Below are positions 1,777-44,830 of a stretch of 64,000 bases of DNA, piece after piece (the first letter of the stretch is position 1; each line of letters begins with the position of its first letter). Location: NCBI GenBank assembly GCA_963695435.1, contig OY968788.1, positions 413,456 to 477,455 of the forward strand, given 5' to 3'. The notes beneath the pieces are model-generated. The model saw only the letters and a program-made list of their open reading frames with translations. It searched no databases and was not told where the DNA came from. The stretch comes from an uncultured bacterium. Lineage in GTDB: Bacteria; Patescibacteriota; Kazan-3B-28. A program made the position numbers and the translations under genes.

Positions 1777-1831
1777 ACACTGCTCTAATACGGAGTATGC
1801 TTTTTTATTCTATTACAAACCCGACTGTAAG

Positions 1832-3337: not shown

Positions 3338-4938
3338 AACGCAGAGCTGTTATTAAAAACGAACAGAATTTCACGATTATTTCTTAGCCAGTGAACGGTC
3401 GCCTCATCACTTAGGTCGTAATATGCCCAATCAATTTGGGGAAGAAGATTATAGATGGGATGTTCGTAACGCGCGCCTTCCGCCCCCAACACACTTTGAT
3501 CAGGAGTGCGTAAAACATATTTAATATTTGGACCGAGAGTAATGTTATCCAAGAATTCGTGCACTTGTTCTCCGCGAACATGCCAGATTGGGTTGGAACT
3601 CGAAAATGCCTTAGGCGCTAGAGAATAAACATCAAAATCGGGATAATAAAATTGATAGTGCCTAAGGCCAAAGAAAATATATCGATTGGAGGCAACAATA
3701 ACTGTATTCTCGGGAGTGAATTTTTCGTGAATTAATTTGGATGTTTCCGCCGATCCCCTATCCATCACCTGAACCGAGGGCAAACCAGCGCTTAAATAAT
3801 CGTAGGCGTCGGGATTAAGCGTATAAAATTGATAAATCTGGAAAGTTAGTACGGCTATAAAGCTCACCCCAATTACCAAATAGCCATAGATTTTAGAAAA
3901 TTTAGCTGCCACTTTGGCAATAGAGGCGGTACTTGCTCCAGCAAGAACCAATAATACTGGTGTAATAAATAGAAGGTAGCCGTTATTGGTCAGCCAGACA
4001 GTAATCACGAACAATAGACCGGGGATGATGGTTAATGACCAAAACCAGACCCAAGGCCAGCTGATTTTAAGATACTGTTTGGATTCGCGAGTAATAAACG
4101 GTATTGCACCCAAACCCAGCAACACCAAGACAGGCAGGAACGCCGAGCGTAATAAAGTAACCGCAAAACTTAAGCGACCAATCATAGCCTTGAAAGTAAT
4201 GGAGTTAGAAGGGTCGAGTGAAATTAGACTGGTCAACCGCCAATTGAGAGCGAGGTATTGGCCCAATCCCCCCGAGATGATTATCAGTGGGATTGCCCAG
4301 AGCAAATTGAGCCCAACCCAGAGTGGCAAAGCCCAGTTGATTTGTCGCCGCCAGTTTTTATAGTGCAGAAAGACAAAAACTATTAGTGGCAGGGTGATAA
4401 TAGCCGAGAATTGACGAATACCACCCAAAAAGGCGCTGATCACCAATAACCAGACTAGAGTAGTATTGCTAGGATGACGAAAGTGGCGATAAGCTACAAG
4501 AATCAAACCAGCAACCACAACTGTTTCAACGATGTAAACTTCAGCAACTAAACCGTGAAACCAAATTGATGAATTGAAAATAAACCAAATACCGGCTAAA
4601 CAACCAACTAATTCACCAAATGCTTCGCGACCAAGTTGATAAATTAACACAAAACCAACAATTGACGCCACAATCCCTAGAATAATTAATGCAAGATTGG
4701 GATCGTGAACAACATAATTTATTAATTTGGCAAGTTCTACATATAAAATGTAGCCTGGTGGGTGGGGTTGGTGTTTAATGAGATCAAAATTATTAATAGC
4801 CAAGGCAAACTGAGCTGAATCCCAGTGGTAGAGATAGTGAGCGTGATACATCCAGCGAGTAATGATAATCGTCAGTGCTCCGACTGTCAGGCCGATATAC
4901 CGCCACCAGTAGTAGTTGAAATTACGCAACTTAACCAT
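3334..4938 (-). CDS. GT-C fold membrane glycosyltransferase (PMT_2/GT39/GT83-like).
   Basis: Polytopic membrane protein. First extracytoplasmic loop carries an HPPGY motif resembling the HPP(L/F) loop-1 motif of GT39/GT83 enzymes. Large C-terminal soluble domain. Translationally coupled to 1832..3337. Confidence 0.55.
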   Translation of the reverse strand: MVKLRNFNYYWWRYIGLTVGALTIIITRWMYHAHYLYHWDSAQFALAINNFDLIKHQPHPPGYILYVELAKLINYVVHDPNLALIILGIVASIVGFVLIYQLGREAFGELVGCLAGIWFIFNSSIWFHGLVAEVYIVETVVVAGLILVAYRHFRHPSNTTLVWLLVISAFLGGIRQFSAIITLPLIVFVFLHYKNWRRQINWALPLWVGLNLLWAIPLIIISGGLGQYLALNWRLTSLISLDPSNSITFKAMIGRLSFAVTLLRSAFLPVLVLLGLGAIPFITRESKQYLKISWPWVWFWSLTIIPGLLFVITVWLTNNGYLLFITPVLLVLAGASTASIAKVAAKFSKIYGYLVIGVSFIAVLTFQIYQFYTLNPDAYDYLSAGLPSVQVMDRGSAETSKLIHEKFTPENTVIVASNRYIFFGLRHYQFYYPDFDVYSLAPKAFSSSNPIWHVRGEQVHEFLDNITLGPNIKYVLRTPDQSVLGAEGARYEHPIYNLLPQIDWAYYDLSDEATVHWLRNNREILFVFNNSSAL

Positions 4939-4959
4939 TAAGTTTATTGTCGCACAAAA

Positions 4960-4989
4960 TTGACCCCACTTTTATAAGCGGGGTCAATA
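4960..4989 (-). terminator. Intergenic hairpin (ttgaccccgc/gcggggtcaa, followed by a T-rich run on the minus strand) between the WxL-like gene and the downstream GT-C genes. Likely a partial terminator or attenuator.
   Basis: 8-9 bp GC-rich stem followed by ttttgtg on the minus strand. Same placement as terminator 17759..17788 in the paralogous locus. Confidence 0.45.
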
Positions 4990-5027
4990 TAATTCGAATA
5001 ACCTTCTAATTTATAAAAGGTAAAAGA

Positions 5028-5639
5028 TTAAGTACCATCGCTAGCCAGCAATGTTAGCACGAATTTACCCGTATATTCACCAGCAGGAAATACGGCTGGG
5101 ACAGGCACGGTGAATTTTATACCGTTGATTCTGGCTGCCATTGGTGCGTTGTAGGTTGAGTTGAAAATGTTGCGCAGAGTGCCGATTTCTACGTCGTTGC
5201 CTTCGCCAATTCCAATTTTTGTACCATCCCATGTGGCGACATTGCTGATGGTGGCGTTGCCGGGATGGACTTTAATGGTGCTGGCCAAAATTGAGTTAGT
5301 GCCACTATTCATATTGCTGGCGTTAACACGAACTGACCAGTAGGAGTTAGCTGCACCGCGTAGGTCACTAACAACATGGTTGCTTAAAACATTATTACCA
5401 GTGGCACCACTACCAACTCCAACAGCAGCAAAAGCCAAGGCAATATCACCATTGCTTAACGAAAGAGCACCGGCGGTAACTCCAATGTTGGTATCGATAT
5501 TATTAGTTAGTCCTGCAAAAACACCTGCTTGCGAATTGAACCACATCAAGCCGACGACCAAAAGAATTAGGCCGCCATAAATTTGTTGTGTTACCTTTGC
5601 TTGGACCTTGTGTAATACAAGATCATTACTGTTTTCCAT
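5028..5639 (-). CDS. Small secreted surface protein with N-terminal signal anchor and a WxL-like C-terminal domain. Paralog of 17108..17734.
   Basis: TM anchor GGLILLVVGLMWF. Gly/Ala/Asn/Thr-rich body. W-x-V/L motifs (SYWSVRV, ATWDG). C-terminal YTGKFVLTLL resembles the second WxL motif. Probable start at MENSND (5637-5639) preceded by AGGGGG; the ORF track extends to 5681. Confidence 0.55.
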   Translation of the reverse strand: MENSNDLVLHKVQAKVTQQIYGGLILLVVGLMWFNSQAGVFAGLTNNIDTNIGVTAGALSLSNGDIALAFAAVGVGSGATGNNVLSNHVVSDLRGAANSYWSVRVNASNMNSGTNSILASTIKVHPGNATISNVATWDGTKIGIGEGNDVEIGTLRNIFNSTYNAPMAARINGIKFTVPVPAVFPAGEYTGKFVLTLLASDGT

Positions 5640-6046
5640 TTTCCCCCTAATGGTACTCTTGTTGTTATTCGACATTTTCATTTTATTTTATTTTTGTTTT
5701 GTTGCGCAATAGTTTTTTTTCAAATTCTTTTTTCTGTGTTCTTCAACTGATTACTTTATTTTTTTATTCAATCAGTTTCTTTAGAATTTTCTTTTACTTT
5801 AGTTTGCACAAATTATTTTTCTTTTCTATTCAACAACTCTTGATTTGTAATAACTTTCTCAAAAAATGTTGTAAATCATTTTAGCAAGTGAAGGTCAGAG
5901 AAGTAAATTTATTTTCAAATTCGATTGGCGTTTTTTGGAAATTTCTAAATACTTTTTATCCTAATTACTTTAGTATATCACAATTATTATAAACTGTCAA
6001 TACCAACGGTTTCTTGAGATTGATGAGGGTATGCTAAAATCTAGGT

Positions 6047-7915
6047 ATGCCACCTTCGTCCAACAGATTAGCAAAGCAGATAACTAATTGGGCTACTGGC
6101 GTTCTATGGGGAGCTTGGGGGCTGGCTTTGGCGTTGGCGGCACGGGGCTTATTTAGCTCCAGCATTCACCGTACGCATGATACAACCCCATATCTGTGGG
6201 CAAAAGCAATGTTTGAGATGTGGCAAAGGGGTTGGTGGTGGCCTCAATGGTTGCCACAAGTTTGGGTTGGATTTGGGGCTCCGGTATTTCACTACTATGC
6301 TCCGTTGTATTATTGGTGGGTTAGTCTGTTCCAGCTGATGGGGCTAAATGCAATATTGGCCACCAAAGTAGTATTGATTATTAGCTTATTCCTCGGGGCA
6401 TGGGGAATGTACCGATTAGCCAGACATTGGTTTGGACTGGAAGCCTCACTGCTGGCAAGCGGGTTATTTGTTTGGGCACCATATTATCTGGCGTTGCTGT
6501 ACACTCGGGGAGCTTTCCCAGAATTTTTTGCTCTAAATCTAGTACCTTGGATTTTGTGGGCACTGGTGACCTACTATCGAAAACCAGCTCGCTGGATATG
6601 GATAGTATTGGTACTGGGTTTGGTCGGAGTGATTCTATCGCATACGCTGACTTCTTTTGTGACGGTAGCGGTGGTAATCGCCATGCTGTTTTATCTTTAT
6701 TATGGCGAGATAAAAAATCGCCGAGCGATTGGCCGAATTGGCCTAGCTGGTTTAGTAGCCTTAGGCCTGACGGCGTTTTATTGGCTGCCAGCACTAGTAG
6801 ATGCCAAACTAATCAATGCAATTTATCTAACCGTCAGTAAATTTGACTATCACCTTTCTTTCCCTAGTTTAGTCAATCTGATAAATCTGTATCGAGATCG
6901 TGAACAAGCTTGGCTGTCGGTTGGGGTGGTTCATTCGGCAACATGGTTAGCCGGATTATTGGTGTACTTTATTGTTCGGCGTCAGCCCTCGGCTAAATTA
7001 TTAGCTGTCCTACTAACCATCTCGGGGATTTTAATTTTTATGGCACTGCCGATTTCTCAATGGATTTGGCAAACTCTACCCGAACTGGCATATTTCCAAT
7101 TCCCTACTAGGTTCCTTGGTCCAGCGGCTATTTTTATTGGTCTAATCGGTGGTTGGTTAGTGCAACAAGCACCAACTGAAGCCAAGGCGCGAGCCAAATT
7201 GGCTAGTGTGATTTTGCTATTGGTTGTAATGGCCAACCTACCGGTATCATCCAATCTGGTTAGTTGGCTAGAGCACAACACAACCGCCGAAAGCTTAACG
7301 ATGAATGAGTATGTGGCTCTTAGATTTGCAACTTCATACGCAGGAGCTGTGAACGGCGTGGGATTGTTTGTTGCTGATTCGGGTATTATGCCGTCAGAAT
7401 ATTTACCTAGTGAATATGTAACAAATCCTAAAACTTATGTCGCCAATGACAGCGAGCCACTAATCACTTACGGTATTGATAACGCCGAACAGCGCTTGGT
7501 TGATGATAAAACATTGAGTCCGTTGCCACTGTTTGAAACTGTAAGTGGTCAGGCGACCATAAATATTCTGGTGGATAAGCCATGGCAAACTCAAGCCGAG
7601 ATTGATGCGACCACAAATACAACATTACAGATTAACCGCATGCGTTTCCCATTATGGAAAATTACTCTGGACGGTAAACCGGTTACGACTTATCTGAAAA
7701 CTGGGGTGTTGGGACAGTTTATGAGCATACCGGTCGGAAAGCACACTTTAGAAGTTAGCTGGAAAAACTCATTAGTTATGATTTGGTCGAGAGTTTTCTC
7801 TGGATTATCGGCGCTGGCACTGTTGGTCGTACTGGTTTTCTCTCGGCTAAGAACGAAAAAATCTGCTAAACTGGTTGCGTATGGCAAAAAAGATAAGAAA
7901 CGCAAAAGCAGATAA
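6047..7915 (+). CDS. GT-C fold membrane glycosyltransferase (YfhO/oligosaccharyltransferase-like) with large C-terminal extracytoplasmic domain.
   Basis: About 12 TM helices. Trp/Tyr-rich first loop (WQRGWWWPQWLPQVW...HYYAPLYYWW). About 230-aa soluble domain, then a final TM and a KKDKKRKSR tail. Confidence 0.5.
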   Translation: MPPSSNRLAKQITNWATGVLWGAWGLALALAARGLFSSSIHRTHDTTPYLWAKAMFEMWQRGWWWPQWLPQVWVGFGAPVFHYYAPLYYWWVSLFQLMGLNAILATKVVLIISLFLGAWGMYRLARHWFGLEASLLASGLFVWAPYYLALLYTRGAFPEFFALNLVPWILWALVTYYRKPARWIWIVLVLGLVGVILSHTLTSFVTVAVVIAMLFYLYYGEIKNRRAIGRIGLAGLVALGLTAFYWLPALVDAKLINAIYLTVSKFDYHLSFPSLVNLINLYRDREQAWLSVGVVHSATWLAGLLVYFIVRRQPSAKLLAVLLTISGILIFMALPISQWIWQTLPELAYFQFPTRFLGPAAIFIGLIGGWLVQQAPTEAKARAKLASVILLLVVMANLPVSSNLVSWLEHNTTAESLTMNEYVALRFATSYAGAVNGVGLFVADSGIMPSEYLPSEYVTNPKTYVANDSEPLITYGIDNAEQRLVDDKTLSPLPLFETVSGQATINILVDKPWQTQAEIDATTNTTLQINRMRFPLWKITLDGKPVTTYLKTGVLGQFMSIPVGKHTLEVSWKNSLVMIWSRVFSGLSALALLVVLVFSRLRTKKSAKLVAYGKKDKKRKSR

Positions 7916-9955: not shown

Positions 9956-10290
9956 TCATCCTGAGCGTAGCGAAGGATCTATGGATAAAACCTATTATGT
10001 CTATATAATGGCAAGCCGATCAGGCGTGCTATATACTGGTGTAACCAGCAACTTGGAACGGAGAGTATACGAACATAAACATGGGATTATAGTCGGTTTT
10101 TCCAAAAAGTATCAGACCAACGCATTGGTTTATTACGAGCATACCGGAGACGTTGAATCAGCCATTGTTCGCGAGAAACAAATCAAGGGTTGGCTTCGCG
10201 CTAAAAAAGAAAAATTAATTCAAAATATGAACCCAAAATGGAATGATTTATCAGAAAGTTTTATAGATTCTTCACTGCGTTCAGAATGAC
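9956..10290 (+). mobile_element. Family-1 palindromic element whose central loop is replaced by a GIY-YIG nuclease gene (filled copy).
   Basis: Left arm tgtcatcctgagcgtagcgaaggatct runs directly into the ATG at 9981. Right arm atagattcttcactgcgttcagaatgac supplies the TGA stop at 10287-10289. Empty copies have aaaaatattat in place of the ORF. Confidence 0.7.
9981..10289 (+). CDS. GIY-YIG nuclease family protein (YhbQ/UPF0213-like, about 100 aa).
   Basis: YVYIMASRSGVLYTGVTSNLERRVYEHK is a canonical GIY-YIG motif. Small single-domain protein. Confidence 0.85.
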   Translation: MDKTYYVYIMASRSGVLYTGVTSNLERRVYEHKHGIIVGFSKKYQTNALVYYEHTGDVESAIVREKQIKGWLRAKKEKLIQNMNPKWNDLSESFIDSSLRSE

Positions 10291-10309: not shown

Positions 10310-11197
10310 ATGACAAAAAATATATCACGGCAAAAAGTCATTGCAATAGTGGGGCCGACCGCCTCGGGAAAATCCGCGTGGGCGGTTGATTTGGCAAAAA
10401 AATATAACGGTGTAATAATCTCCGCCGATTCCAGACAAGTCTACAAGGGACTGAATGTCGCTACCGCCAAAATAACCAAAACGGAGATGAGTGGCATTCC
10501 CCACTATCTTTTGGATGTAGTAAAGCCAACCGAAAGTTTTGATGTGGCAACATATCAAAAACTAGTTTATGAATTGCTGAAAAAGTTGCGAAATAAAAAA
10601 CTTCCCATCATCGCGGGCGGAACGGGACTGTATGTTCAAGCGGTCACAGACGGTTATGTTTTTCCGACTACAAAGCCAAATTTGAAACTGCGCGCAAAGT
10701 TAGAAAAACAACCACTGTCAGAACTTGTCAGCAAACTAAAGAAACTCGCCCCTGACCTGCAGATTGATTTCAAAAATCCTAGACGAGTAATTAGAGCATT
10801 GGAAATTTATTCACAAACAGAAAGTCGTCCTGCCAAACATGAAACCCCCTTTGACACATTGAAAATAGGGATTAAATTATCCGTAGCAGAACAGGAAAAA
10901 CGGATTGCCAAACGAATCCAGCAAATGGATTTTGACGCACTGATTGCAGAAACTAAAAAACTAATCAAAGCAAAGTTTGATTTCGGGAGTAATCCCTTAA
11001 CCGCCTTTTACTATCGACTAGTTAAAGATTGGTTGGAGAAAAAAATAACTAAGTCGGAACTGATAGAAAAAATGATTCGCGCCGACCGCAAATATGCCAA
11101 GCGTCAAATGACTTGGTTCAAAAAAGACCCTCAAATCCATTGGGTAGAAAATCTAACCGACGCCGATCAGCTAGTCCGCCTTTTCCTAAAAAAATAA
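10310..11197 (+). CDS. miaA: tRNA dimethylallyltransferase.
   Basis: P-loop VIAIVGPTASGKS, DSRQVYKGLNVATAK motif. Length and order typical of MiaA. ORF-track start 10286 lies inside the repeat; Met at 10310 preferred. Confidence 0.9.
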   Translation: MTKNISRQKVIAIVGPTASGKSAWAVDLAKKYNGVIISADSRQVYKGLNVATAKITKTEMSGIPHYLLDVVKPTESFDVATYQKLVYELLKKLRNKKLPIIAGGTGLYVQAVTDGYVFPTTKPNLKLRAKLEKQPLSELVSKLKKLAPDLQIDFKNPRRVIRALEIYSQTESRPAKHETPFDTLKIGIKLSVAEQEKRIAKRIQQMDFDALIAETKKLIKAKFDFGSNPLTAFYYRLVKDWLEKKITKSELIEKMIRADRKYAKRQMTWFKKDPQIHWVENLTDADQLVRLFLKK

Positions 11198-11206
11198 CTT
11201 ATTCCC

Positions 11207-11230
11207 CAAAACTCACGATCGTGAGTTTTG
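11207..11230. terminator. Bidirectional rho-independent terminator between convergent miaA and the GT2 gene.
   Basis: Perfect palindrome caaaactcacgatcgtgagttttg flanked by A/T runs on both strands. Confidence 0.7.
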
Positions 11231-11231
11231 C

Positions 11232-11292
11232 GACTAGTGGCTAGTGGATAATTGTTTGTGGCTATTGTCTATTTGTCTGTCGTCTATTCGTC
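11232..11292. repeat. Low-complexity direct-repeat tract (ctagtggctagtgg / gtctatt units).
   Basis: Similar tracts at 50351..50445 and 55205..55310. Confidence 0.6.
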
Positions 11293-11295
11293 TAG

Positions 11296-12114
11296 CTACG
11301 GACGGCGAGGCAAAGTAAAATCTTGAATGTAACCAACCTGCAAATATTTTCCGCGCATCATATTCATTTTTATGCGGAATAAGTCTTTTAGTGTGCGAAT
11401 AGCTTCTTTTCCTGCGCGAACACGGCTATCTGGATCGTTGTACCATTCAATCCCCACCTCCTTGAACGGATATCCAAGTTGCCGAGCAATCACAAAAGCT
11501 TCGATATCGAAACCGAATCTTTCCAATCGAACATTGGCAAAAATATTCTTGCCAGCATTGCGTTCAAAAAGTTTGAAACCACATTGGGTGTCCCAAATTC
11601 CCGGCACTGCCACAATCCGAATTAGTAAGTTGGAAGCACGGGAAAGTAATTTGCGATGTTGAGCTTGGTGAATATGGATATGAGCACCCTTAATGTGACG
11701 AGAACCAAAAACGATTGGGAAAGTATCGACATACGGCCACATCTTCTCGATTTCCTCAATAGGAGTGGCGTTGTCGGCATCCGTAAAGAGCAGATATCTG
11801 CCTTTGGCGGACAACATTGCTCTCTTTACCGCTGCTCCCTTGCCCTGATTTTGGATGGCGGTAATCAGTTTCAGCTCTGGCCAGCCCTCCTGAATAATCT
11901 TTACGACTGGAACAGTGGTGTCTTTGCTCCCGTCATCAGAAACAATCACCTCATAGGTGTAAGATTGGGCATCCAGATATTTTCTCATCTGGGCGAGAGT
12001 TTTTCCGATACGGCGCTCTTCGTTATAGGCTGGAACAATAATTGAAAGCTGAACCTCCCCTACCGCAACGGTTGGTTGAGTTACTGGCTGGCTGGGGGCG
12101 ATTCCTACTTCCAT
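11296..12114 (-). CDS. GT2 family polyprenyl-phosphate glycosyltransferase (DPM1/GtrB/CsbB-like).
   Basis: LSIIVPAYNEERRI...VIVSDDGSKDTT (DxD-type GT-A signature). Start chosen at MEVGIAP; the longer ORF N-terminus (MDSRLRGNDRSGG) is a translation of a family-2 hairpin repeat. Confidence 0.8.
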   Translation of the reverse strand: MEVGIAPSQPVTQPTVAVGEVQLSIIVPAYNEERRIGKTLAQMRKYLDAQSYTYEVIVSDDGSKDTTVPVVKIIQEGWPELKLITAIQNQGKGAAVKRAMLSAKGRYLLFTDADNATPIEEIEKMWPYVDTFPIVFGSRHIKGAHIHIHQAQHRKLLSRASNLLIRIVAVPGIWDTQCGFKLFERNAGKNIFANVRLERFGFDIEAFVIARQLGYPFKEVGIEWYNDPDSRVRAGKEAIRTLKDLFRIKMNMMRGKYLQVGYIQDFTLPRRP

Positions 12115-12143
12115 ACCTCTTATTGTACCGTATCCTCCTGACC

Positions 12144-12170
12144 TGTCATTCCCGCGCAGGCGGGAATCCA
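12144..12170. repeat. Small hairpin repeat, family 2 (ATTCCCGC-loop-GCGGGAATGACA).
   Basis: 8-bp perfect stem. Copies at 30548..30574 and 38500..38526 with compensatory stem changes (cccgc/gcggg versus ccagc/gctgg). Confidence 0.7.
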
Positions 12171-12209
12171 TTTTCTCCGTCATGCTGAATTTAGTTCAGT
12201 ATCTTTTTT

Positions 12210-12284
12210 GTCATTCTGACGCTAGGAAGAATCTATAATATTCTCTTAGATCCTTCCCCCGACAAGTCGGGGTCGAGGATGACA
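12210..12284. repeat. Family-1 palindromic element, inverted orientation, with extra internal hairpin (ccccgacaagtcgggg).
   Basis: Reverse complement aligns with the copy at 16915..16995 along its whole length. Confidence 0.8.
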
Positions 12285-12292
12285 ATAAATTG

Positions 12293-12742
12293 TTACTTCT
12301 TGAATATCAGGAATTTGGGAGCGAGGAAGTTCCAAAGGAAAATCAAAACGACTGAAGTAAATTTCACAAGATTCAAATCGAAATGAAATATTAAACTCAT
12401 CAAATAAACAAATCCATTTGAGATGCCCAAGCCAACCAGACTAACAAAAACAAAAAACGGAAGTTGTGTTTGCCATTTCCCTGTTGTGTCGCCAAAGGTC
12501 CAATATTTGTTCATAAAGAAACTGTTGATAACAGCTACAACAAACGCAACTGTGTTGGCTGGCATAATCGGCCACGAATAGTAAACCAAAACATTCAATA
12601 GTCCAATATCGATAGCAGTATTCAAACCGCCCACAAGAGCGAACTTTGAGAATTGTCTAACCAGCTTCTCTACTTTCTCCGAATGAACACCAGTATATTT
12701 GCTAATCAGTTTGCTTGTCCAAACTATGAGATTGTTTAGCAT
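12293..12742 (-). CDS. GtrA-family small membrane protein (putative polyprenyl-phosphate-sugar flippase).
   Basis: About 150 aa with 4 TM helices. GtrA-like core FALVGGLNTAIDIGLLNVLV. Start set at MLNNLIV to avoid overlap with the upstream gene. Confidence 0.65.
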   Translation of the reverse strand: MLNNLIVWTSKLISKYTGVHSEKVEKLVRQFSKFALVGGLNTAIDIGLLNVLVYYSWPIMPANTVAFVVAVINSFFMNKYWTFGDTTGKWQTQLPFFVFVSLVGLGISNGFVYLMSLIFHFDLNLVKFTSVVLIFLWNFLAPKFLIFKK

Positions 12743-12746
12743 AATT

Positions 12747-13472
12747 TTATTTTTGAGCGAGAACAACCAAACTACTCCCCCATGGTAAGCGCCAGTTATG
12801 CGACAACCACCAAGCTTCAATTTTGCTGAGCCAGACTAAAATACCAGAGGTGTGAGTCGCCTCGCTGGCTGTTTCGTAGGTGGTTTTTTCCTTTCGACCC
12901 ATAATGAAACGCACTGCAACAAAAACTGGAAATACAAAAAAGAAAAATGGTGAAAGTAAAACTACTTTGAAACCAACTTGTTCTAATTTCCTTTTTAAGT
13001 CAGCCGGATTGTAGCGCCGTTGGTGATGTAAGGCTTTGTCGTGTCCTGTCCACATCCATTGATACGCAGGTACGGTAATAAAAACATATCCGTTTGGTTT
13101 GAGAGTGGTGTACCAATTTCGTAAAGCTGAAATATCATCTTGAATATGTTCTAAGACATCAAATGCGGTGAGCAAATCAAATTGAGAATCAAAGGAAAGA
13201 TTTGTTCCGTCAGTTTGAATCAATTCGTCATAGACATGTTTGTTCCGACAATAGTCGAGTGCTTCGGCGCTAGTATCCAACCCTGTCACCCTCCCCCAGT
13301 TTTTGAGCCAGTTGTAATTAATACCCGTACCACAACCAACATCTAAAATATCCAAATTTTGACCCTGAGGAATATGTTTCCCCAGTACCTTTTGCAAAAC
13401 TTCCCGACGGCCAATATGCCACCAGTAGTTCTGCTCTTCCTGCTCCATCCGACCGTATTCAGATAGCTCCAT
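12747..13472 (-). CDS. Class I SAM-dependent methyltransferase.
   Basis: Motif I LDILDVGCGTGINYNWL. About 240 aa. Co-directional with GtrA and the GT2 gene. Confidence 0.75.
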   Translation of the reverse strand: MELSEYGRMEQEEQNYWWHIGRREVLQKVLGKHIPQGQNLDILDVGCGTGINYNWLKNWGRVTGLDTSAEALDYCRNKHVYDELIQTDGTNLSFDSQFDLLTAFDVLEHIQDDISALRNWYTTLKPNGYVFITVPAYQWMWTGHDKALHHQRRYNPADLKRKLEQVGFKVVLLSPFFFFVFPVFVAVRFIMGRKEKTTYETASEATHTSGILVWLSKIEAWWLSHNWRLPWGSSLVVLAQK

Positions 13473-13579
13473 AAACCTATTATACGGACATAGGGATTTT
13501 CGGGTATAATAAACCCGTCGCAGAGCTGATTTTTACCAACCCTGTCGGGGCGTATAGTTGAAAGGTTGTGGCTTGGGGC

Positions 13580-13652
13580 CGGGGCGTAGCGCAGTTGGTA
13601 GCGCGCCGCGTTTGGGACGCGGAGGTCGCACGTTCGAATCGTGTCGCCCCGA
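13580..13652 (+). tRNA. tRNA-Pro (anticodon TGG).
   Basis: Cloverleaf readable: acceptor CGGGGCG/CGCCCCG, U8, D-stem GCGC, anticodon stem CCGCG/CGCGG with loop TTTGGGA, T-loop TTCGAAT. Flanked by complementary ggcttgggg/ccccaagcc. Confidence 0.85.
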
Positions 13653-13736
13653 CCCCAAGCCATCACAAAAATATGCGCGGTCCGACACTTCGGTCGGACA
13701 GGTCGTTTTGTCGCCCCGACCAGATACAATAGTCCT

Positions 13737-15029
13737 ATGAGATACACTCAATCTTTCATCAAAACTATTCGGGAAGTTCCCAAGGAAGCGGAGGTAATCA
13801 GCCACCAATATCTTCTGCGGGGTGGATTTGTCACGACACTAGCGGCGGGTTTTTACACTTACCTCCCGATGGGATTTCGGGTGTTTCGGAAAATCTACGA
13901 CATCATCACCGAAGAGCTGAACAAGATAGGTGTCGAAGATATGATAATGCCTGTCGTTCATCCAGCCAGACCGTGGAAAGAAACAAAGAGATTTTTTGAA
14001 GTTGGACCCGAATTGTGGAAAATCAAAAACCGTTCGGACGAAGATTTTGTATTGGCAATGACTCACGAGGAAATCGTGACAGACGCCGCCAAAAAAATTA
14101 TCAATTCATATAAAGATTTGCCGAAGTTGGTCGGTCAAATCCAAACCAAAGTTCGTGATGAAGCGCGAGTACGGGGCGGATTACTGCGTTTGCGCGAATT
14201 TACAATGCAAGATGCTTATTCTTTCAACCGAGACGAAAAAGGATTGGATGAAATTTATCTGAAGTTTATTGATGCCTATAAAAATATATTTGAACGGATG
14301 GGTGTCAAGACAGTAGTGATTGAATCCGACACGGGCGCAATGGGCGGAAGCGGTGCGCACGAATTTATGATGATTGCGGAATCCGGCGAGGATAAAATTG
14401 TCACCGATGGCGAGCGTGCGGTAAATGCGGAGAAATTAGGGATTACTCGGGAAGATGATTTGAAGTCGGTTGATTCCCGTCGCAAGATCGAGGCGTTTTT
14501 TGGCGCTGGCAAAAAAGTAGAATTCCTGCGAGGAATTGAAGTTGGAAACATCTTTAAGCTTGGGACGAAATACTCTACCCCCCAGAAACTGATGTATATA
14601 GATGAAAACAACGAATCCAAGCCGGTGATTATGGGAAGTTATGGAATCGGTTTGGATAGGTTAGTGGCCGCGATTGTGGAAGCCAGTCATGATGACAAAG
14701 GAGTCATTTGGCCAAAAGCAGTCGCCCCGCATCAAGTTCATTTAGTGAGTTTAGGAAACGATCCAATAGTGACAGCGGCGGCTACCAAACTTTATGAAAG
14801 TTTAAATTCATCCGGAATTGATGTTTTCTATGATGACCGCGAAGAAGTTAGCGCGGGAGAAAAATTTTCGGATGCGGATTTGATTGGAATCCCCTGCCGA
14901 GTGACCATTAGCAACAAAACATTGGCAGAAGATTCTGTCGAAATTAAATTGCGCAACTCTCAAGATGCAAAGCTGGTGAAATTGACAGAAATGACAAAAA
15001 AACTGAAGGAAGATTTTTTGTCATCCTGA
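13737..15029 (+). CDS. proS: Prolyl-tRNA synthetase.
   Basis: Class II aaRS motifs and C-terminal anticodon-binding domain. Start set at MRYTQSF because the ORF-track start overlaps tRNA-Pro. The TGA stop lies inside a family-1 repeat. Confidence 0.85.
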   Translation: MRYTQSFIKTIREVPKEAEVISHQYLLRGGFVTTLAAGFYTYLPMGFRVFRKIYDIITEELNKIGVEDMIMPVVHPARPWKETKRFFEVGPELWKIKNRSDEDFVLAMTHEEIVTDAAKKIINSYKDLPKLVGQIQTKVRDEARVRGGLLRLREFTMQDAYSFNRDEKGLDEIYLKFIDAYKNIFERMGVKTVVIESDTGAMGGSGAHEFMMIAESGEDKIVTDGERAVNAEKLGITREDDLKSVDSRRKIEAFFGAGKKVEFLRGIEVGNIFKLGTKYSTPQKLMYIDENNESKPVIMGSYGIGLDRLVAAIVEASHDDKGVIWPKAVAPHQVHLVSLGNDPIVTAAATKLYESLNSSGIDVFYDDREEVSAGEKFSDADLIGIPCRVTISNKTLAEDSVEIKLRNSQDAKLVKLTEMTKKLKEDFLSS

Positions 15030-17107: not shown

Positions 17108-17734
17108 ATGAAAAACAAGATTAGTAACCTTTTACAGGTTCAGGCAGAAATCAGCCGACAAGCCTTAGTGCTTGGCACGGTTTTGTTTTTCGCTGGTGTG
17201 ATGTCAATCGCAACAATCAAAGTTAGTAGTGCGGCTACCGGTGATACCAATATGCTGCAAAATGTTGAGGGTGGGGCTATGGCATTTGATAATGTTCCTA
17301 ATAATGTCAACTTTGGAGCTACTTCTCTGGGGGAGGTAAATGCAAATGTTAGTACTGGTAGCAGTGGTATTGTTCTTAACGATCTTCGTGGAACTAAGGC
17401 GGGTTGGTCAATTACTGGTTATGTAAATAGTAATTTTTATAGTGCTGCTACACCGGCCACCCAAATGGCTGTTGCGGATAGGTTGACTTGGCTCGCAAAT
17501 GCCGTAACAATCGCAAATATTACTGGTGATACTGGAGGCGTTGTCCAACAAGCTAATAATACTTTTACCGCAGCGGGTGATGCTGCTAATTTGACTCTTG
17601 CCCTTGATGTTGGTTCAGGTAATAATGGCGCGGGAGCTTACAATATTACTAATTTGGAATTTCAATATGATGTTCCTGCGTTAGCAACAGTTGCTGCTGA
17701 TTATAAAACAATGTTTACATTAACCATCGTCTAA
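17108..17734 (+). CDS. Small secreted surface protein with WxL-like C-terminal domain. Paralog of 5028..5639.
   Basis: Signal anchor ALVLGTVLFFAGVMSIA. Gly/Ala/Asn/Thr-rich body. GWSITGY and RLTWLANA (W-x-L) motifs. C-terminal YKTMFTLTIV. Monocistronic between a consensus promoter and a terminator. Confidence 0.55.
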   Translation: MKNKISNLLQVQAEISRQALVLGTVLFFAGVMSIATIKVSSAATGDTNMLQNVEGGAMAFDNVPNNVNFGATSLGEVNANVSTGSSGIVLNDLRGTKAGWSITGYVNSNFYSAATPATQMAVADRLTWLANAVTIANITGDTGGVVQQANNTFTAAGDAANLTLALDVGSGNNGAGAYNITNLEFQYDVPALATVAADYKTMFTLTIV

Positions 17735-17758
17735 TTACTTTACTTAGGAATAGTGGAT

Positions 17759-17788
17759 AAATCAGGGCTTATAAGCCCTGATTTTTTA
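17759..17788 (+). terminator. Rho-independent terminator after the WxL-like gene.
   Basis: aatcagggctt-ata-aagccctgatt followed by TTTTTTAT. Confidence 0.8.
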
Positions 17789-17826
17789 TTTGTACCGATA
17801 AATTAGTCTTATGGTAATCTAATACT

Positions 17827-19395
17827 ATGAGACGCCGTAAACAGCAACCGCGATTCTCTTTGCCACTAACGATAGCCAGAACAACTGTTGCTAAGAAGTG
17901 GCGAGAGTTTTGGAATCAATTCGATACGCTAACTTGGTTGCTGTTTGGTCTGCTTCTGACTTTTTGCTGGAGGATACCTACAACCGACCCTGATTTCGGC
18001 TGGCATTTGCGTTCAGGGTTAGACCTGCTAAAGAATTTTTTTGTCCCCAAATTTGACCCATATTCATACACTCTCCCCGATTGGCCGTGGGTGAACCACG
18101 AATGGCTGGCTGACGGGTTGGCAGCTCTAATTTACAAAGCAGGTGGAATCTGGGGGCTAAGCTTGGTGTTCGCAATCCTTCTGATAGGAATCTTTTTATT
18201 GGCTGCTTCTGCGACCAAAAAAGTAAAAAATAGATATAAAATATTGGCTGGTCTGGTAGCTATTTTGGCAGCATCACCGATTTTGGGGGTTCGAATGCAG
18301 ATGATTACCCTCTTGGGGATGGTCTGGCTCTTGTGGATTTTATATCGCTATCGTATTGGTGAAATTAAGCACCTGTGGTGGCTTCCTGTTATCTTTCTTT
18401 TTTGGGCAAACCTTCACGGTGGATTCTTAATGGGGTTTGTTGTTTTGGGAATATTCTGGTTAGTTGAGGGTATAAAGTTTATCGTCAAACAGTATCGGCT
18501 GAAGTGGTATAAGTGGTTAAAAATTGATGAGGCGAGTTTGGGTGGACCAAAACTTAAACATCTCCTTCTGATAAGCGGATTATCTTTTCTTGCGACCTTC
18601 ATCAATCCTTACGGCTGGGGGCTGTACTACGATTTTTACAAATTATTTACCAATCCTTTTGCAATAAAGAATATTTCGGAATGGCAACCAGTATCATTGG
18701 CTAGCACCTTGTCGGCGAACTTTACGCTGTATATGATTTTGTTCGCAGTGCTTTTACTTTTGACTTACCGAAAAGTTGAGCCGACTCGCTGGGCGATTAC
18801 GGGTTCATTTTTATGGCTTTCGTTTTTGTATTGGCGTAATCTCCCCTTCTTTATGGTGATGAGTGTTGGTTTTTTGGCGGAAACAATTCAAGAACATACG
18901 CATCTGATTTTTGACTATATAGCCCGACAACGCTGGATACTGGTCAGTTGGGTGATAATTGTTGGAATTATTGTGTCCCAACAGATTATTAGTATTAGTG
19001 ACCGGATACAGTACCCTACTATCGGCTTACAGGCGGCTGGTTATCCTGTGGAGGCGGTGAAATGGATTCAGCAAAACCGCGGAGAATTGGGTGACAAAAT
19101 GTTCAACGAATATGACTGGGGTGGTTATCTCATCTGGAAATTACCCGAATACAAAGTATTTCTAGACGGTCGGATGCCTTACTGGCAGATTGGCGACAGA
19201 TTCCCCTTTGTTGATCATCAGTATGCAATGTCGGCTCAAGCGGGTTCGATTGAAATGTTGGAAAATAAGTATGGGGTGGACTGGTTTCTAATTAGACAGG
19301 GACGACCGTTGGCCGTTGCGTTGTATGGGCAAACTGAAAAGTGGAAAGAAGTATATCGTGACGGAGCAGCAGTGATTTATCGGAAAATTATTTAG
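17827..19395 (+). CDS. GT-C fold membrane glycosyltransferase. Paralog of 1832..3337.
   Basis: Shares the DPDFGWHL loop and the C-terminal EYDWGGYLIWKLPEYKVFLDGRMPYW block with 1832..3337. More than 10 TM helices. Confidence 0.6.
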   Translation: MRRRKQQPRFSLPLTIARTTVAKKWREFWNQFDTLTWLLFGLLLTFCWRIPTTDPDFGWHLRSGLDLLKNFFVPKFDPYSYTLPDWPWVNHEWLADGLAALIYKAGGIWGLSLVFAILLIGIFLLAASATKKVKNRYKILAGLVAILAASPILGVRMQMITLLGMVWLLWILYRYRIGEIKHLWWLPVIFLFWANLHGGFLMGFVVLGIFWLVEGIKFIVKQYRLKWYKWLKIDEASLGGPKLKHLLLISGLSFLATFINPYGWGLYYDFYKLFTNPFAIKNISEWQPVSLASTLSANFTLYMILFAVLLLLTYRKVEPTRWAITGSFLWLSFLYWRNLPFFMVMSVGFLAETIQEHTHLIFDYIARQRWILVSWVIIVGIIVSQQIISISDRIQYPTIGLQAAGYPVEAVKWIQQNRGELGDKMFNEYDWGGYLIWKLPEYKVFLDGRMPYWQIGDRFPFVDHQYAMSAQAGSIEMLENKYGVDWFLIRQGRPLAVALYGQTEKWKEVYRDGAAVIYRKII

Positions 19396-19472
19396 CTGAC
19401 AGATATGTAAAGAATAAACTCACCTGTTGGCGAGATACTTTATCCTAGAGAAAAGTCACGAATTAGCATAAA

Positions 19473-20912
19473 ATGGAATCTGTGAACAATCGAAAATTGT
19501 TAGCACGAACAACTGGAATTTTACTCTTGACTGTAGCGTTGTCAGCTGTGGCAGCTTTGCCTATGTCGGCTTTAGCATTGTCTACGGGTAGTATGGGTAT
19601 ATTACCCGCTCATCCAGATCCGAGTATCCCTCTCTCTAGTAGCTGGTTTTTATATGAAGTGGATCCTGGTGCCACCATTGAAGACGCTGTTCAGATATCA
19701 AACCCCGGTGATAAATCAACTAAATTAAAATTGGAAGGTCTAGATGCGGGGATGAATGATGATGGCGGGTTTGGGTTGGCCAGTTCTTCTGAAGAAAATG
19801 AGGATATTGGCAAGTGGATTACTCTGGAAAGTAGCGAAATCAGTCTAGCACCTAAGGAAAAAAAGATTGTGAAATTTACCGTCAATGTTCCCCTTGATGC
19901 TGATGTGGGAGACCATATTGGAGGGTTGGCTGTATATAAGATGAGTGACGTGGCCGACGAGACTGTTAAGGCGGGCGGAGCTAGTGTGGGTATTTCTACT
20001 CGAGTTGGAGCTCGAATTTATTTGACGGTCAAAGGTGATATTGTCCGAAAGTTAATTTTGAAAAGTAAAAAGTTTTTTAGTCGAGGCAAGACAATGCTCT
20101 TTCGATTCAAGTGGGAGAATAAAGGAAATGTTCGCGCCAAACCAATTGCTAATGGAAAAATTTACGGGATTTTTGGAGTGTATCATGTTGTTGATAATGT
20201 TAGTTTGGGCGAAATTTTCCCCAAAAAGAATGTTGTGAGAGAAGTTGCATTACAAGGGAAGGACCGACCAATATTCGGACCGTATTTAGCGGTTCTAAAA
20301 ATCCAAGATGAATTTACAGGTCTTAACCCCACAAACCCAATCCCGACAACCGAACCGTTTACGGTCTGGATGTTCACCTTCTTCATCCCCTACACTCAAG
20401 TTTTGATTCTATTGATTCTGCTGTTCTTGGTTTGGTTCTTTATGCAACTTAGAAAATGGCGACAGATGATTAATCTTTCAAAAACACCAGTGGCCACTTA
20501 CAAAATAAACAAGGGCGATCATTTGACAAGTATCGCATCTCGGTACGGTGTGAATTGGAAATTGTTGGCAAAACTGAACGAAATCAAACCGCCGTACAGT
20601 CTCGACGGAGTTACCCAGATTTATGTGCCTGACGTCAGAGGCACTCGGCGAAATATCCGTGTCCCCCACTTTTTGACCTATATCACCAGACCATTACATC
20701 ATTTCTTGGTTGATTTTGTTGCTCGCTTCTTAAAGAAAAAGAAGCTATATTACACCATCGTGGTTGATGGGAATGATACTAAAGAAGATATTGAGAAGTT
20801 CACTAAAATGAGTTGGGCGGAAATTGCCAGATATAACGGAATTGGAGCAACTGCTCGTCCTAAAGTTGGTCAGGAACTTCGAATCCCTCACCGCCGACTA
20901 AAATCAAAATAA
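19473..20912 (+). CDS. Surface protein: signal peptide, DUF916-like domain, TM helix, two LysM domains. Paralog of 274..1776.
   Basis: Same architecture and conserved motifs as 274..1776. TM segment WMFTFFIPYTQVLILLILLFLVWFF. LysM blocks YKINKGDHLTSIASRYG... and YTIVVDGNDTKEDIEKF...GQELRIP. Confidence 0.7.
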   Translation: MESVNNRKLLARTTGILLLTVALSAVAALPMSALALSTGSMGILPAHPDPSIPLSSSWFLYEVDPGATIEDAVQISNPGDKSTKLKLEGLDAGMNDDGGFGLASSSEENEDIGKWITLESSEISLAPKEKKIVKFTVNVPLDADVGDHIGGLAVYKMSDVADETVKAGGASVGISTRVGARIYLTVKGDIVRKLILKSKKFFSRGKTMLFRFKWENKGNVRAKPIANGKIYGIFGVYHVVDNVSLGEIFPKKNVVREVALQGKDRPIFGPYLAVLKIQDEFTGLNPTNPIPTTEPFTVWMFTFFIPYTQVLILLILLFLVWFFMQLRKWRQMINLSKTPVATYKINKGDHLTSIASRYGVNWKLLAKLNEIKPPYSLDGVTQIYVPDVRGTRRNIRVPHFLTYITRPLHHFLVDFVARFLKKKKLYYTIVVDGNDTKEDIEKFTKMSWAEIARYNGIGATARPKVGQELRIPHRRLKSK

Positions 20913-20914
20913 GT

Positions 20915-23900
20915 ATGAGGTGTTTGATGGTTACTCGTCACCGAATTACTACACAGCGAGCCATTCCCCCATCATCAATCTGGTGGCTAACTGTACTCGT
21001 ATTAGTGAGTTTGTTTTGTGATTTACCAATGGCTGGTGCAGTAACCAACGACGCCATGATGGTCTATGACACTCAAACGATTACCTCAACTCCAAAGTAT
21101 CAACGATGGAACGGATCATGGGGTGGTGAAGCATCAGCTAACACGACCACTGGAGAGATTAGATACATGGAGCTGAAGTTTTCACCCGTAGCCGACCAAG
21201 CTATTTTAGTAACTCAAGGTAGCAGTGGAGTGTTAGAAGCTCAAGTCTGGACAGGAGGAGGAACTAATAGTTGGGGGGCAATCACGATTATTGGGACAGT
21301 CGGAGCTGGGACATTAGAAGGAGCTGGGATTAATGATGGTGAACAGTTTCGATGTTGGGATATTGAGTATGAACAAGTGTCTGGTGATGCGGTAATTGTC
21401 TACCAAGATGGAACGGCCGATCCAGATTACAAAGTGTATTCTAGTGGGGCTTGGTCTGTTAGCGGATCTGACATAAATATTCTCACTACTGGGGCACCGG
21501 CTTGGATCGAGTTAGCTTCATCACCAGGAGAAGATTATTTAGCGATGATTTCGATAGATGTGACGATTGATGTCTATGGTATGCGGTGGAACGGAAGCGC
21601 TTGGGATGATATGAATAGCGGTGGGGCGGAAGCAATTTGGGACACTGGTGGGTCAATCTATTACCGTAAGAGTATTGATGTGGCATTTGAAACTAACTCG
21701 GCTGATATTTTATTTATGTGGTATGACGCCACCCAAGATGTTCAAAACTACCGCAGATACACTCAAGGCACCACCACACTAGAAACACTGCAAACTCTGT
21801 CTATGACCAACCAAGCTGGGTTGGGTCAGTGGGTGCAATTGGCAGCCGACCCAACGGCTGGTTCGGACAAGATTATGTATGTGGAACAAGATGCGCAGTT
21901 AGACATTTGGTCAGCGTATTGGGATGGTTCAGCTTGGACGGCTGAGACTGTCGCCCATGATGCGACTGTGGAAATTGTGACTAACATGAACTTTGATGTA
22001 GCTTGGGAAACCTATACTGGTCATACTGGTCATTGCTGGATTGTGTATGGTGATGGGGCTGGTACGTCATCTCGACATTGGAACGGCAGTAGCTGGGACT
22101 CTGTCTCCACCACTCCAACTAGTGATGATGATACTGGGCATGTTCGAGTAGCTGTTCAACCGAATGATGGAACATTATTTGCCATGTCGTACGAAACAAC
22201 TGGTTCAGCTAGTGACAACATTGAAGTTTCATCCAATGCCAGTGGTTCGTCAACTTGGGGAGCCCAAAGTGAAATCTGGGCTGGACCGACTGTAACCGAC
22301 ACTGCGACGGTGGCATTAGGTGGCACTTTCCGGATGGCGATTGCGGCGGAGATATACAGCTCTTCAACCGACGCCATGATGGTCTATGACACTCAAACGA
22401 TTACCTCAACTCCAAAGTATCAACGATGGAACGGATCATGGGGTGGTGAAGCATCAGCTAACACGACCACTGGAGAGATTAGATACATGGAGCTGAAGTT
22501 TTCACCCGTAGCCGACCAAGCTATTTTAGTAACTCAAGGTAGCAGTGGAGTGTTAGAAGCTCAAGTCTGGACAGGAGGAGGAACTAATAGTTGGGGGGCA
22601 ATCACGATTATTGGGACAGTCGGAGCTGGGACATTAGAAGGAGCTGGGATTAATAATGGTGAACAGTTCCGATGTTGGGATATTGAGTATGAACAAGTGT
22701 CTGGTGATGCGGTAATTGTCTACCAAGATGGAACGGCCGATCCAGATTACAAAGTGTATTCTAGTGGGGCTTGGTCTGTTAGCGGATCTGACATAAATAT
22801 TCTCACTACTGGGGCACCGGCTTGGATCGAGTTAGCTTCATCACCAGGTGAGGATTATTTAGCGATGATTGTCCTAGACCAAAACACAGATGTCTACGGC
22901 ATGCGGTGGAATGGGAGTGGCTGGGATGACATGAACAGTGGTGGAGATGAAGCTGTCTGGGACACAGCTGCAGCTTTGTATTACCGCAAATGTATTGATG
23001 TAGCATTTGAAACTAACTCCAACGACATTTTATTTATGTGGTATGACGGTGTCCAAGATGTTCAAAACTACCGCAGATACACCCATGGCACCACCACACT
23101 AGAAACACTGCAAACTCTGTCTATGACCAACCAAGCTGGGTTGGGTCAGTGGGTGCAATTGGCAGCCGACCCAACGGCTGGTTCGGACAAGATTATGTAT
23201 GTGGAACAAGATGCGCAGTTAGACATTTGGTCAGCGTATTGGGATGGTTCAGCTTGGACGGCTGAGACTGTCGCCCATGATGCGACTGTGGAAATTGTGA
23301 CTAACATGAACTTTGATGTAGCTTGGGAAACCTATACTGGTCATACTGGTCATTGCTGGATTGTGTATGGTGATGGGGCTGGTACGTCATCTCGACATTG
23401 GAACGGCAGTAGCTGGGACTCTGTCTCCACCACTCCAACTAGTGATGATGATACTGGGCATGTTCGAGTAGCTGTTCAACCGAATGATGGAACATTATTT
23501 GCCATGTCGTACGAAACAACTGGTTCAGCTAGTGACAACATTGAAGTTTCATCCAATGCCAGTGGTTCGTCAACTTGGGGAGCCCAAAGTGAAATCTGGG
23601 CTGGACCGACTGTAACCGACACTGCGACGGTGACATTAGGTGGCACTTTCCGGATGGCGATTGCGGCGGAGATAGCTGAATCGGCAACACTGGGTATCAC
23701 CGCCCCAACTGATGTCACATTAACCACTGGCAATCCGGGAACAACCGTGGATACGACTTTTGGGACTGGTGAAAAAGTGACTCTGACGGATGGCGGCGCG
23801 GGCTGGACTTTGAGTGCACGGATGCTGGCTACTTTGACTTCAGGCAGTTATACGATTCCCAACACTAATGTGTACTTGCGCAAAGACGGAAATGTCGGAT

Positions 23901-43608: not shown

Positions 43609-43649
43609 TTTTATTTTTTGCCTGCCTTTGTTTTTATTATACTATACTT

Positions 43650-44825: not shown

Positions 44826-44830
44826 TTTGT

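Follow-up and report, generated by a model that had tools for sequence, protein, structure and literature searches.

A 64,000-nucleotide (nt) stretch of contig OY968788.1 (assembly GCA_963695435.1, from an uncultured Kazan-3B-28 bacterium of the Patescibacteriota), called the window below, carries on its minus strand a trio of genes for an S-adenosylmethionine (SAM) methyltransferase (MT), a small GtrA-family membrane protein and a family 2 glycosyltransferase (GT2). From their sequences, the GT2 and GtrA proteins look like a dolichyl-phosphate mannose synthase (DPMS)-type enzyme split over two genes, and not merely a synthase with a separate flippase. We consider it probable that this split synthase feeds surface glycosylation by GT-C glycosyltransferases encoded nearby. 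The three trio genes were found where the initial annotation of this DNA had placed them, each with a Pfam match. Its broader proposal, that a lipid-sugar synthase occurs here together with a GtrA protein and GT-C transferases, is borne out in silico at the level of families and folds. The genes for the GT-A synthase, the small membrane protein and the GT-C enzymes all lie in the window, within a span of 18 kb.

The GT2 enzyme belongs with the polyprenyl-phosphate glycosyltransferases. Its Glycos_transf_2 match (PF00535, E 1.3e-26) was obtained on the long open reading frame (ORF) 11296-12183, which contains the GT2 gene itself. A phmmer search of the PDB gave as best matches the DPMS of Pyrococcus furiosus (PfDPMS, E 2.1e-14), GtrB and ArnC, which we take to be the three structurally characterised polyprenyl-phosphate glycosyltransferases. 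An AlphaFold2 model made from 40 homologs (pLDDT 88) groups with DPMS, ArnC and GtrB when compared with solved folds, and the hyaluronan, cellulose and chitin synthases score 12-15.7; by sequence and by structure, the enzyme thus falls outside the polymer-synthase clade, a placement in which would, according to the initial annotation, have refuted its reading. The DxD motif (D112-A-D114, in TDADN) is invariant in the 40 homologs and aligned with the DAD of PfDPMS, and a DTQCGFK loop is likewise invariant among them. The assignment by hidden Markov model (HMM) that the initial annotation had called for succeeded in part: the NCBIfam models matching over the whole domain are polyprenyl- or dolichyl-phosphate (Pol-P/Dol-P) transferases (AglJ, a Dol-P hexose transferase, ArnC and PpgS), with polymer synthases covering just the N-terminal ~100 residues, but no equivalog cutoff is reached, and these models assign no sugar specificity. 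Automatic JGI and UniRef names for the orthologs read dolichyl-phosphate beta-glucosyltransferase; on this weak evidence the sugar would be glucose from UDP-Glc. It is probably not mannose. A hydropathy scan detected no transmembrane (TM) segment in the 272 residues of the GT2, whereas GtrB and ArnC have two TM helices of their own and PfDPMS has four. The model does have two long helices (152-168 and 234-253) where interface helices would be expected, and by their position they may serve as such.

The missing membrane part appears to be encoded by the adjacent gene. The GtrA protein matches GtrA_DPMS_TM (PF04138, E 3.1e-24, 85.9 bits against a cutoff of 26.1), shows four TM segments in the hydropathy scan and has a conserved NK(Y)WTF motif. 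A PDB search with a profile of eight GtrA orthologs gave a single match, at E 1.2e-13, to chain residues 252-372 of PfDPMS, its TM domain. The GT2 matches the catalytic part of PfDPMS and GtrA its TM part, so that both are PfDPMS homologs, encoded by two genes in the window and not as one chain. Moreover, at least 12 GT2 homologs (~47-51% identity, from other Patescibacteria) carry both Pfam domains in a single chain; of the two such fusions scanned, P0113 has its GtrA domain at 13-128 and its GT2 domain at 146-316, and P0086 has the same order. Since GtrA is homologous to the TM domain of PfDPMS and GtrA-GT2 fusions exist, we read the pair as a split DPMS-type synthase, in which the GtrA protein would provide the GT2 with its membrane anchor in trans. 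In PfDPMS the catalytic domain sits on a GtrA-like TM domain and the enzyme may flip its own product, and flippase activity of GtrA proteins in general is proposed, not established (PMC12992685, 2026). Of the 'GtrA-flippase' in the initial annotation, the family therefore stands, and the independent flippase was an assumption made for a homolog of the DPMS membrane domain. A GT-A synthase that is bound and stimulated by a small membrane protein of another family is known from GacI/GacJ (10.1101/180810). The natural contrast between split genes in the window and fused genes in other Patescibacteria bears on whether GtrA proteins act as flippase, synthase subunit or both.

Among the translations of all ORFs in the window, a hydropathy scan picked out no more than four polytopic proteins with at least 500 residues. 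They are encoded at the four positions proposed earlier for GT-C genes (1832, 3334, 6047 and 17827), and each has GT-C fold or family evidence, its first outer loop containing an acidic residue that is conserved; the lack of GT-C signatures that the initial annotation had named as refuting its reading is thus not seen. The count of 'five GT-C paralogs' has to be corrected, however, because the four genes fall into three unrelated families: one PMT_2/TMEM260-like protein (GTCa), one PTPS_related protein and a pair from a family that Pfam does not cover (GTCb-1 and GTCb-2), which are the only paralogs (32% identity over 475 residues, E 9e-81). Direct sequence searches of the PDB with these candidates gave nothing useful, and a 40-sequence GTCa profile found no PDB match. 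Direct fold evidence is confined to GTCb; GTCa and the PTPS_related protein are placed by Pfam family. For GTCa the matches are to TMEM260-like (E 3.3e-05, the score equalling the cutoff of 24.2) and PMT_2 (E 2e-04); within its family, 36 of 40 sequences match PMT_2 (best 3.6e-14) and 30 of 40 match TMEM260-like, and both D40, the loop-1 acidic residue, and an HPPGY motif (58-63) are invariant. The PTPS_related protein matches PF10131 (E 2.2e-13, 50 bits against a cutoff of 26.4), a family listed in the Pfam GT-C clan CL0111 (PMC7801869), and its H44-D45 after TM1 is conserved in the three sequences aligned.

The model of GTCb-2 (pLDDT 92) finds its best structural matches in STT3B, PglB and AglB, the C-terminal globular domain of AglB included, with the monophosphate-donor enzymes DPY19 and ArnT scoring nearly as high. 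Residue D56 is invariant and lies in a DPDxGWHL motif in the first outer loop, directly after TM1; the motif is also present in GTCb-1. A further invariant signature, YxxGGxLxW...FxDGRM, follows the last TM helix. No window protein has an STT3 Pfam match and WWDYG is absent from the GTCb alignment; GTCb is therefore oligosaccharyltransferase (OST)-like in fold and not a member of the OST family. With more than 1000 members, in Kazan/CPR (candidate phyla radiation) genomes and in Nitrospira, this is a fold-level assignment for a sizeable family that has no Pfam model. The coordinates are collected in Table 1.

Table 1. Trio, GT-C candidates and surface loci of the window
Feature	Position	Strand	Description
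SAM methyltransferase (MT)	12747-13472	minus	241 aa, one C-terminal TM; first gene of the trio
GtrA-family protein	12293-12742	minus	149 aa, 4 TM; PF04138
GtrA-GT2 spacer	12115-12292		178 nt, short palindromic repeats
GT2 glycosyltransferase	11296-12114	minus	272 aa, no TM; candidate DPMS/ALG5-like polyprenyl-phosphate hexose synthase
GTCa	3334-4938	minus	534 aa, PMT_2/TMEM260-like; 4-nt overlap with next gene
GTCb-1	1832-3337	minus	501 aa, no Pfam family; paralog of 17827-19395
GTCb-2	17827-19395	plus	522 aa, no Pfam family; STT3/DPY19/ArnT-like fold
PTPS_related GT-C candidate	6047-7915	plus	622 aa, PF10131
Locus A	274-5681	minus	small protein, GTCa, GTCb-1, DUF916-LysM
Small secreted or anchored protein	5028-5681	minus	217 aa, first gene of locus A
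DUF916-like + TM + 2x LysM surface protein	274-1776	minus	last gene of locus A
Locus B	17108-24115	plus	small protein, GTCb-2, DUF916-LysM, 1066-aa protein
Small secreted or anchored protein	17108-17734	plus	208 aa, first gene of locus B
DUF916 (WxLIP_PGBD) + TM + LysM surface protein	19473-20912	plus	directly downstream of GTCb-2

The order of the trio is conserved. Among named organisms, the nearest relatives are 'candidate division Kazan' bacteria, and two window proteins have 100% identical database entries (P0121 and P0241) on one and the same contig. MT, GtrA and GT2 genes follow one another in the same order in Kazan-type genomes whose GT2 proteins are 89% (L004-L006), 73% (L001-L003, the complete genome CP011216.1) and 62% (L007) identical to that of the window, and the trio is also present in L095, despite a GIY-YIG gene between MT and GtrA. 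At 55% identity (L008), the GtrA-GT2 pair is kept and no MT match was found. The MT and GtrA genes overlap or lie 4 nt apart in L001, L004 and the window, where 4 nt separate the MT stop from the GtrA ATG. The tightest arrangement is that of L007, where GTCb, two DUF916/LysM genes, the gene of an 867-aa protein, MT, GtrA and GT2 form a single close-spaced array on one strand. In four loci (the window, L001, L094 and L095), aminoacyl-tRNA-synthetase genes surround the trio, which lies outside the GT-C operons; in L094 and L095, both from Kazan genomes, small secreted and DUF916/LysM genes flank GTCb.

Outside this group, the GT2 is found next to GTCb itself. Nitrospira sp. KM1 (L010) and a second Nitrospirota assembly (L011), which have the same gene arrangement, encode a GT2 without TM segments (38-42% identity) end to end with GTCb (37-38%). 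In a metagenome-assembled genome (MAG) of Syntrophaceae (L021), the gene of an EamA/ArnE-like small membrane protein is followed by those of GT2 and GTCb, and in a Geobacteraceae MAG (L071) the genes of GTCa, PMT_2, GTCb, a 484-aa protein and GT2 follow one another in this order. Thus the GT2-GTC link is loose in the window and tighter in other genomes. One GT2 stands with three or four GT-Cs in a single array in L071, and with two GT-Cs and an MT homolog in L012 (Candidatus Uhrbacteria); by analogy with these two loci, one GT2 may serve several GT-Cs in the window.

Three of these loci hint at what may replace parts of the trio. A carbamoyltransferase gene (Carbam_trans_N/C, NodU-like) precedes the GTCb homolog with overlapping or adjacent ends in both Nitrospirota loci (L010 6286-8004, L011 6254-7972), which hints at a carbamoylated sugar in place of a methylated one. 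In L021, the EamA/ArnE-like protein (2438-2788, 116 residues) takes the position of GtrA upstream of GT2, and the GT2/GTCb pair there seems to work with a candidate flippase or partner from another family. The small GIY-YIG gene changes its place around the trio (window 9981-10289, L095 1767-2051, L007 9051-9317), consistent with a mobile, homing-endonuclease-like element.

From the folds and families of the parts, the split/fusion relation and the conserved gene order, we infer the following steps. The GT2 as catalytic domain and GtrA as membrane domain would together make up a type-III DPMS-like enzyme, which at the inner face of the membrane would transfer a hexose from a nucleotide sugar to polyprenyl phosphate; as the host is a bacterium, the carrier is presumably undecaprenyl phosphate. 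GtrA would anchor the synthase and may also aid the flipping of its product, as proposed for PfDPMS. The least certain step is that of the membrane-anchored MT, translationally coupled to GtrA, whose target is probably the sugar on its lipid carrier or else the finished glycan. Outside the membrane, GT-C enzymes would draw on the lipid-linked sugar: the two GTCb proteins, embedded in both surface loci, are the best-linked partners, and the PMT_2-like and PTPS_related enzymes may share the same donor. The acceptor is likely to be a surface protein or a cell-wall polymer of locus A or B.

The MT matches Methyltransf_23 (E 4.5e-21), Methyltransf_11 (E 2.4e-20) and also Methyltransf_25, and the hydropathy scan predicts a single TM helix at residues ~163-181. 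Full-length homologs, the TM tail included, are common in Patescibacteria, and the best PDB relatives are generic small-molecule methyltransferases (cypemycin N-MT, PMT and UbiG). MT homologs directly follow GT2 in two Armatimonadota loci (L035 and L052), and in L012 a homolog of 39% identity lies near GT2, between PMT_2 and YfhO GT-Cs. The first 12200 nt of L012 (1-12200) are a type IV pilus/type II secretion system (T2SS) cluster with T2SSE, T2SSF, an N_methyl pilin and a prepilin peptidase; it houses the MT homolog, both of these GT-Cs and a small GT2, a gene set that suggests pilin glycosylation in this Uhrbacteria lineage.

The GT2 ORF could be extended to a start at 12183, but this was rejected, because the ORF would then cross a dispersed repeat and the N-terminus would be unlike those of the homologs; the ATG at 12114 is the likely start, as the resulting N-terminus agrees with that of the 89%-identical homolog P0001. 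Similarly, a GtrA start at 12820 was rejected since it would overlap the MT gene. The repeat in question is a 21-mer palindromic element, TCCCGCCTGCGCGGGAATGAC, found in the spacer at 12145-12165 and again at 30553-30573 and 38504-38524, three dispersed copies in the window against a chance expectation of 0; in the over-long ORF, its spacer copy would read as an 'LRGND' peptide. The spacer also has a promoter-like hexamer pair immediately upstream of the GT2 ATG. Promoter and terminator scanning of 11100-13700 gave site counts no higher than in shuffled sequences, and the transcription units were therefore taken from gene spacing. In relatives, GtrA and GT2 are 19 nt apart (L004) or overlap by 11 nt (L007), and the wide spacer of the window is therefore, as far as these sequences tell, a secondary insertion.

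The trio sits between the two surface loci, which are inverted with respect to each other, and is parted from them by genes for threonyl-tRNA synthetase, the GIY-YIG protein, MiaA, tRNA-Pro, prolyl-tRNA synthetase (ProRS) and arginyl-tRNA synthetase. The tRNA-Pro(TGG) gene (13580-13654) extends into the ProRS ORF as called mechanically (13641-15029), covering its GTG start. The true ProRS start is probably a downstream Met (MRYTQSF...), and the tRNA-Pro gene thus stands directly upstream of the gene for its synthetase.

Several observations weigh against a split synthase that supplies the GT-Cs. The GT2 remains far below the equivalog thresholds (its best, PgfS, gives 62.5 bits where 500 are required), and in the fusions GtrA precedes GT2, opposite to the order in PfDPMS. 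In the window, the GT2 gene lies behind 178 nt with repeats and a promoter-like site and may be transcribed separately, and the GT-C genes are 3.4-8 kb off, with tRNA-synthetase, MiaA and GIY-YIG genes intervening. No GtrA gene was found within 8 kb of the Nitrospira GT2-GTCb pairs, so this GT2 family does not need GtrA in every case. In a broader co-occurrence sample of 80 GT2 relatives (35-48% identity, taken among the matches listed and not the closest ones), narrow custom HMMs recognised a partner within 5 kb in only 12 of the 80, a lower bound given how narrow they are. The substrate of the MT cannot be read from its sequence, and every step of the pathway is predicted from sequences and models.

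These points leave room for other explanations. One, possible although distinctly less probable to us, is the classical three-component scheme of the initial annotation, in which the GT2 makes the lipid-linked sugar unaided, GtrA is a flippase in its own right and the four GT-Cs all use this one donor to decorate DUF916/'WxL' proteins. Each component type is indeed present in the window, GtrA-family proteins are presumed to do the flipping in systems of the CsbB/GtcA/YfhO type (PMC8035078), several GT-Cs accompany one GT2 in L071 and L012, and GTCb has small secreted and DUF916/LysM genes on its flanks in L094 and L095 and stands directly upstream of two DUF916/LysM genes in L007. This scheme has difficulty, however, with a GT2 lacking its own membrane anchor, with a GtrA that is homologous to a synthase TM domain and fused to GT2 in relatives, and with a flippase activity that is itself unproven and disputed (PMC12992685); in addition, the WxL assignment fails at the Pfam level, and the Nitrospira GT2/GTCb pair occurs without DUF916 loci. 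Whether the GT-Cs draw on the GT2 at all can also be questioned: GTCb could be a compact OST-like enzyme acting on a pyrophosphate-linked glycan from another pathway and the trio could serve a glycolipid or wall polymer, their proximity being housekeeping synteny. The structural ranking of GTCb (STT3B, PglB and AglB first, down to the AglB C-terminal domain), the position of the trio among tRNA-synthetase genes in four loci and the many sampled GT2 relatives without a nearby GT-C (most of them) would fit such an arrangement. We nevertheless hold it to be unlikely, as the GT2 adjoins GTCb in two Nitrospirota loci, Syntrophaceae and Geobacteraceae and shares one array with it in L007, the STT3 Pfam match and WWDYG are both absent, the monophosphate-donor enzymes DPY19 and ArnT score nearly equally, and the window has no genes for assembling a Pol-PP-linked glycan.

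The GT2 might finally be an ordinary cytoplasmic glycosyltransferase, acting on a glycan, a soluble acceptor or a lipid other than polyprenyl phosphate, with GtrA and MT as unrelated neighbours. Its lack of TM helices and its failure to meet any NCBIfam equivalog threshold would be accounted for in this way, but against it stand the Rosetta-stone fusions with GtrA, the conserved order of the GtrA and GT2 genes, and the two long helices of the model, which may be of an amphipathic type and, by position, resemble interface helices; we regard this explanation as very improbable. The split GT2-GtrA synthase feeding GT-C enzymes remains the account that we favour.

As for the acceptors, the initial annotation had pointed to 'WxL/DUF916 proteins'. 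The DUF916 part stands for the surface protein downstream of GTCb-2 (WxLIP_PGBD E 2.2e-11, 44.3 bits against a cutoff of 27.3; LysM E 7e-16). Its counterpart in locus A, which has two hydrophobic segments, gives LysM at E 6.9e-18 and WxLIP_PGBD at E 4.1e-05, the 24 bits of the latter being below the same cutoff of 27.3. The WxL part found no support: neither the 208-aa and 217-aa proteins nor the C-terminus of the 1066-aa protein has a WxL match, even at E 10, and the two small proteins match no Pfam family of any kind. Both DUF916-LysM proteins were considered as GT-C candidates and rejected on their Pfam content. The two small proteins are weakly similar to each other (26% identity, E 0.005), and orthologs of the 208-aa protein precede GTCb in other Kazan genomes. 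It is solely gene neighbourhood that suggests the DUF916 surface proteins as acceptors; the locus A protein is a possible acceptor or partner, and in Nitrospira the GT2/GT-C pair occurs without DUF916-type proteins.

A bolder extension, which we judge rather unlikely, would make GTCb a compact STT3/AglB/DPY19-like protein glycosyltransferase that takes a (possibly methylated) Pol-P-hexose from the split synthase and glycosylates the neighbouring surface proteins, namely the DUF916-LysM proteins, the ~210-aa secreted proteins and the large repeat protein. If true, it would be a previously undescribed route of protein glycosylation at the cell surface of episymbiotic CPR bacteria.

Two further observations concern surface proteins of the window. 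The 1066-aa protein of locus B (20915-24115) contains an internal direct duplication with a period of 1320 nt (copies 21049-21348 and 22369-22668), in which at least 300 nt are 100% identical; this points to a module of ~440 aa, rich in W-N/D-G-S-x-W motifs, that was duplicated in tandem very recently. Three adjacent genes on the minus strand at 42607-47014 match Cohesin (5.2e-05), TIG (6.4e-13) and Dockerin_1 (2.1e-04 and 7.5e-03), the cohesin and dockerin scores falling below the Pfam cutoffs, and may be the genes of a small assembly of cohesin-dockerin type at the surface of this CPR bacterium.

The genomes of CPR bacteria are tiny, and attachment to a host is their presumed way of life. 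That one lipid-sugar synthase and four GT-Cs are kept in or beside surface loci suggests that surface glycosylation matters for this lifestyle, and the genes described here give work on the subject concrete starting points. Our literature search for CPR/Patescibacteria together with WxL/DUF916, GT-C/glycosylation or GtrA/dolichyl-phosphate turned up, among the papers listed, none that names CPR or Patescibacteria. Should the pathway merely add glucose to a wall polymer, it would be an ordinary new instance of a well-known scheme.

Taken together, the cluster is a credible but unproven variant, predicted from its genes, of a known bacterial surface-glycosylation pathway. The overall scheme is already known: in the GtrA/GtrB/Gtr(type) system of Shigella phage, CsbB/GtcA/YfhO of Bacillus and GtlA/GtcA/GtlB of Listeria, a GT2 makes an undecaprenyl-phosphate-linked sugar, a GtrA-family protein takes part and a GT-C enzyme acts outside the membrane (PMC8035078). 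The window follows the same logic, but GtrB and CsbB have two TM helices of their own and the window GT2 has none; the window moreover adds an MT, its GT-C families differ (no YfhO or GtrII matches) and its GT-C genes are embedded in surface-protein operons. The variant features are thus the TM-less synthase with a GtrA-type partner, the coupled MT and the Pfam-less GT-C family inside surface-protein operons. Compared with the type-III PfDPMS (PDB 5mlz), which is a single chain, the window system consists of two polypeptides in a bacterial host, and its fused relatives have GtrA at the N-terminus, in reversed order.

A synthase with a small stimulating partner, fused to it in some genomes, and a GT-C that completes the pathway are also found in GacI/GacJ/GacK/GacL of S. 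pyogenes and PpgS/Rv3632 of M. tuberculosis, Rv3632 being GacJ-like (DUF2304) (10.1101/180810). There the partner is a DUF2304 protein with three TM segments, together with a Wzx-type flippase and GlcNAc or GalNAc as the sugar, whereas the partner in the window is GtrA. In streptococci, GtrB makes a Pol-P-hexose from which the GT-C PgtC2 O-glucosylates extracytoplasmic proteins (PMC12041528), an experimental precedent for the pathway proposed here. PgfS of the Pgf system is the top NCBIfam match of the window GT2; in contrast to these systems, no Ser/Thr-rich disordered acceptor regions were identified in the window, and the GT-C families are unrelated in sequence. GTCb differs from STT3/PglB/AglB and DPY19 in its size of ~500 residues, in having YxxGGxLxW...FxDGRM for WWDYG and in its partner, a monophosphate-sugar synthase. 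Lastly, ALG5, the dolichyl-phosphate beta-glucosyltransferase, which was compared by description only, shares with the window GT2 the automatic ortholog names, the short GT2 architecture and presumably the DTQCGFK-type loop, but the eukaryotic enzyme has a TM anchor of its own, which the window GT2 would obtain from GtrA.

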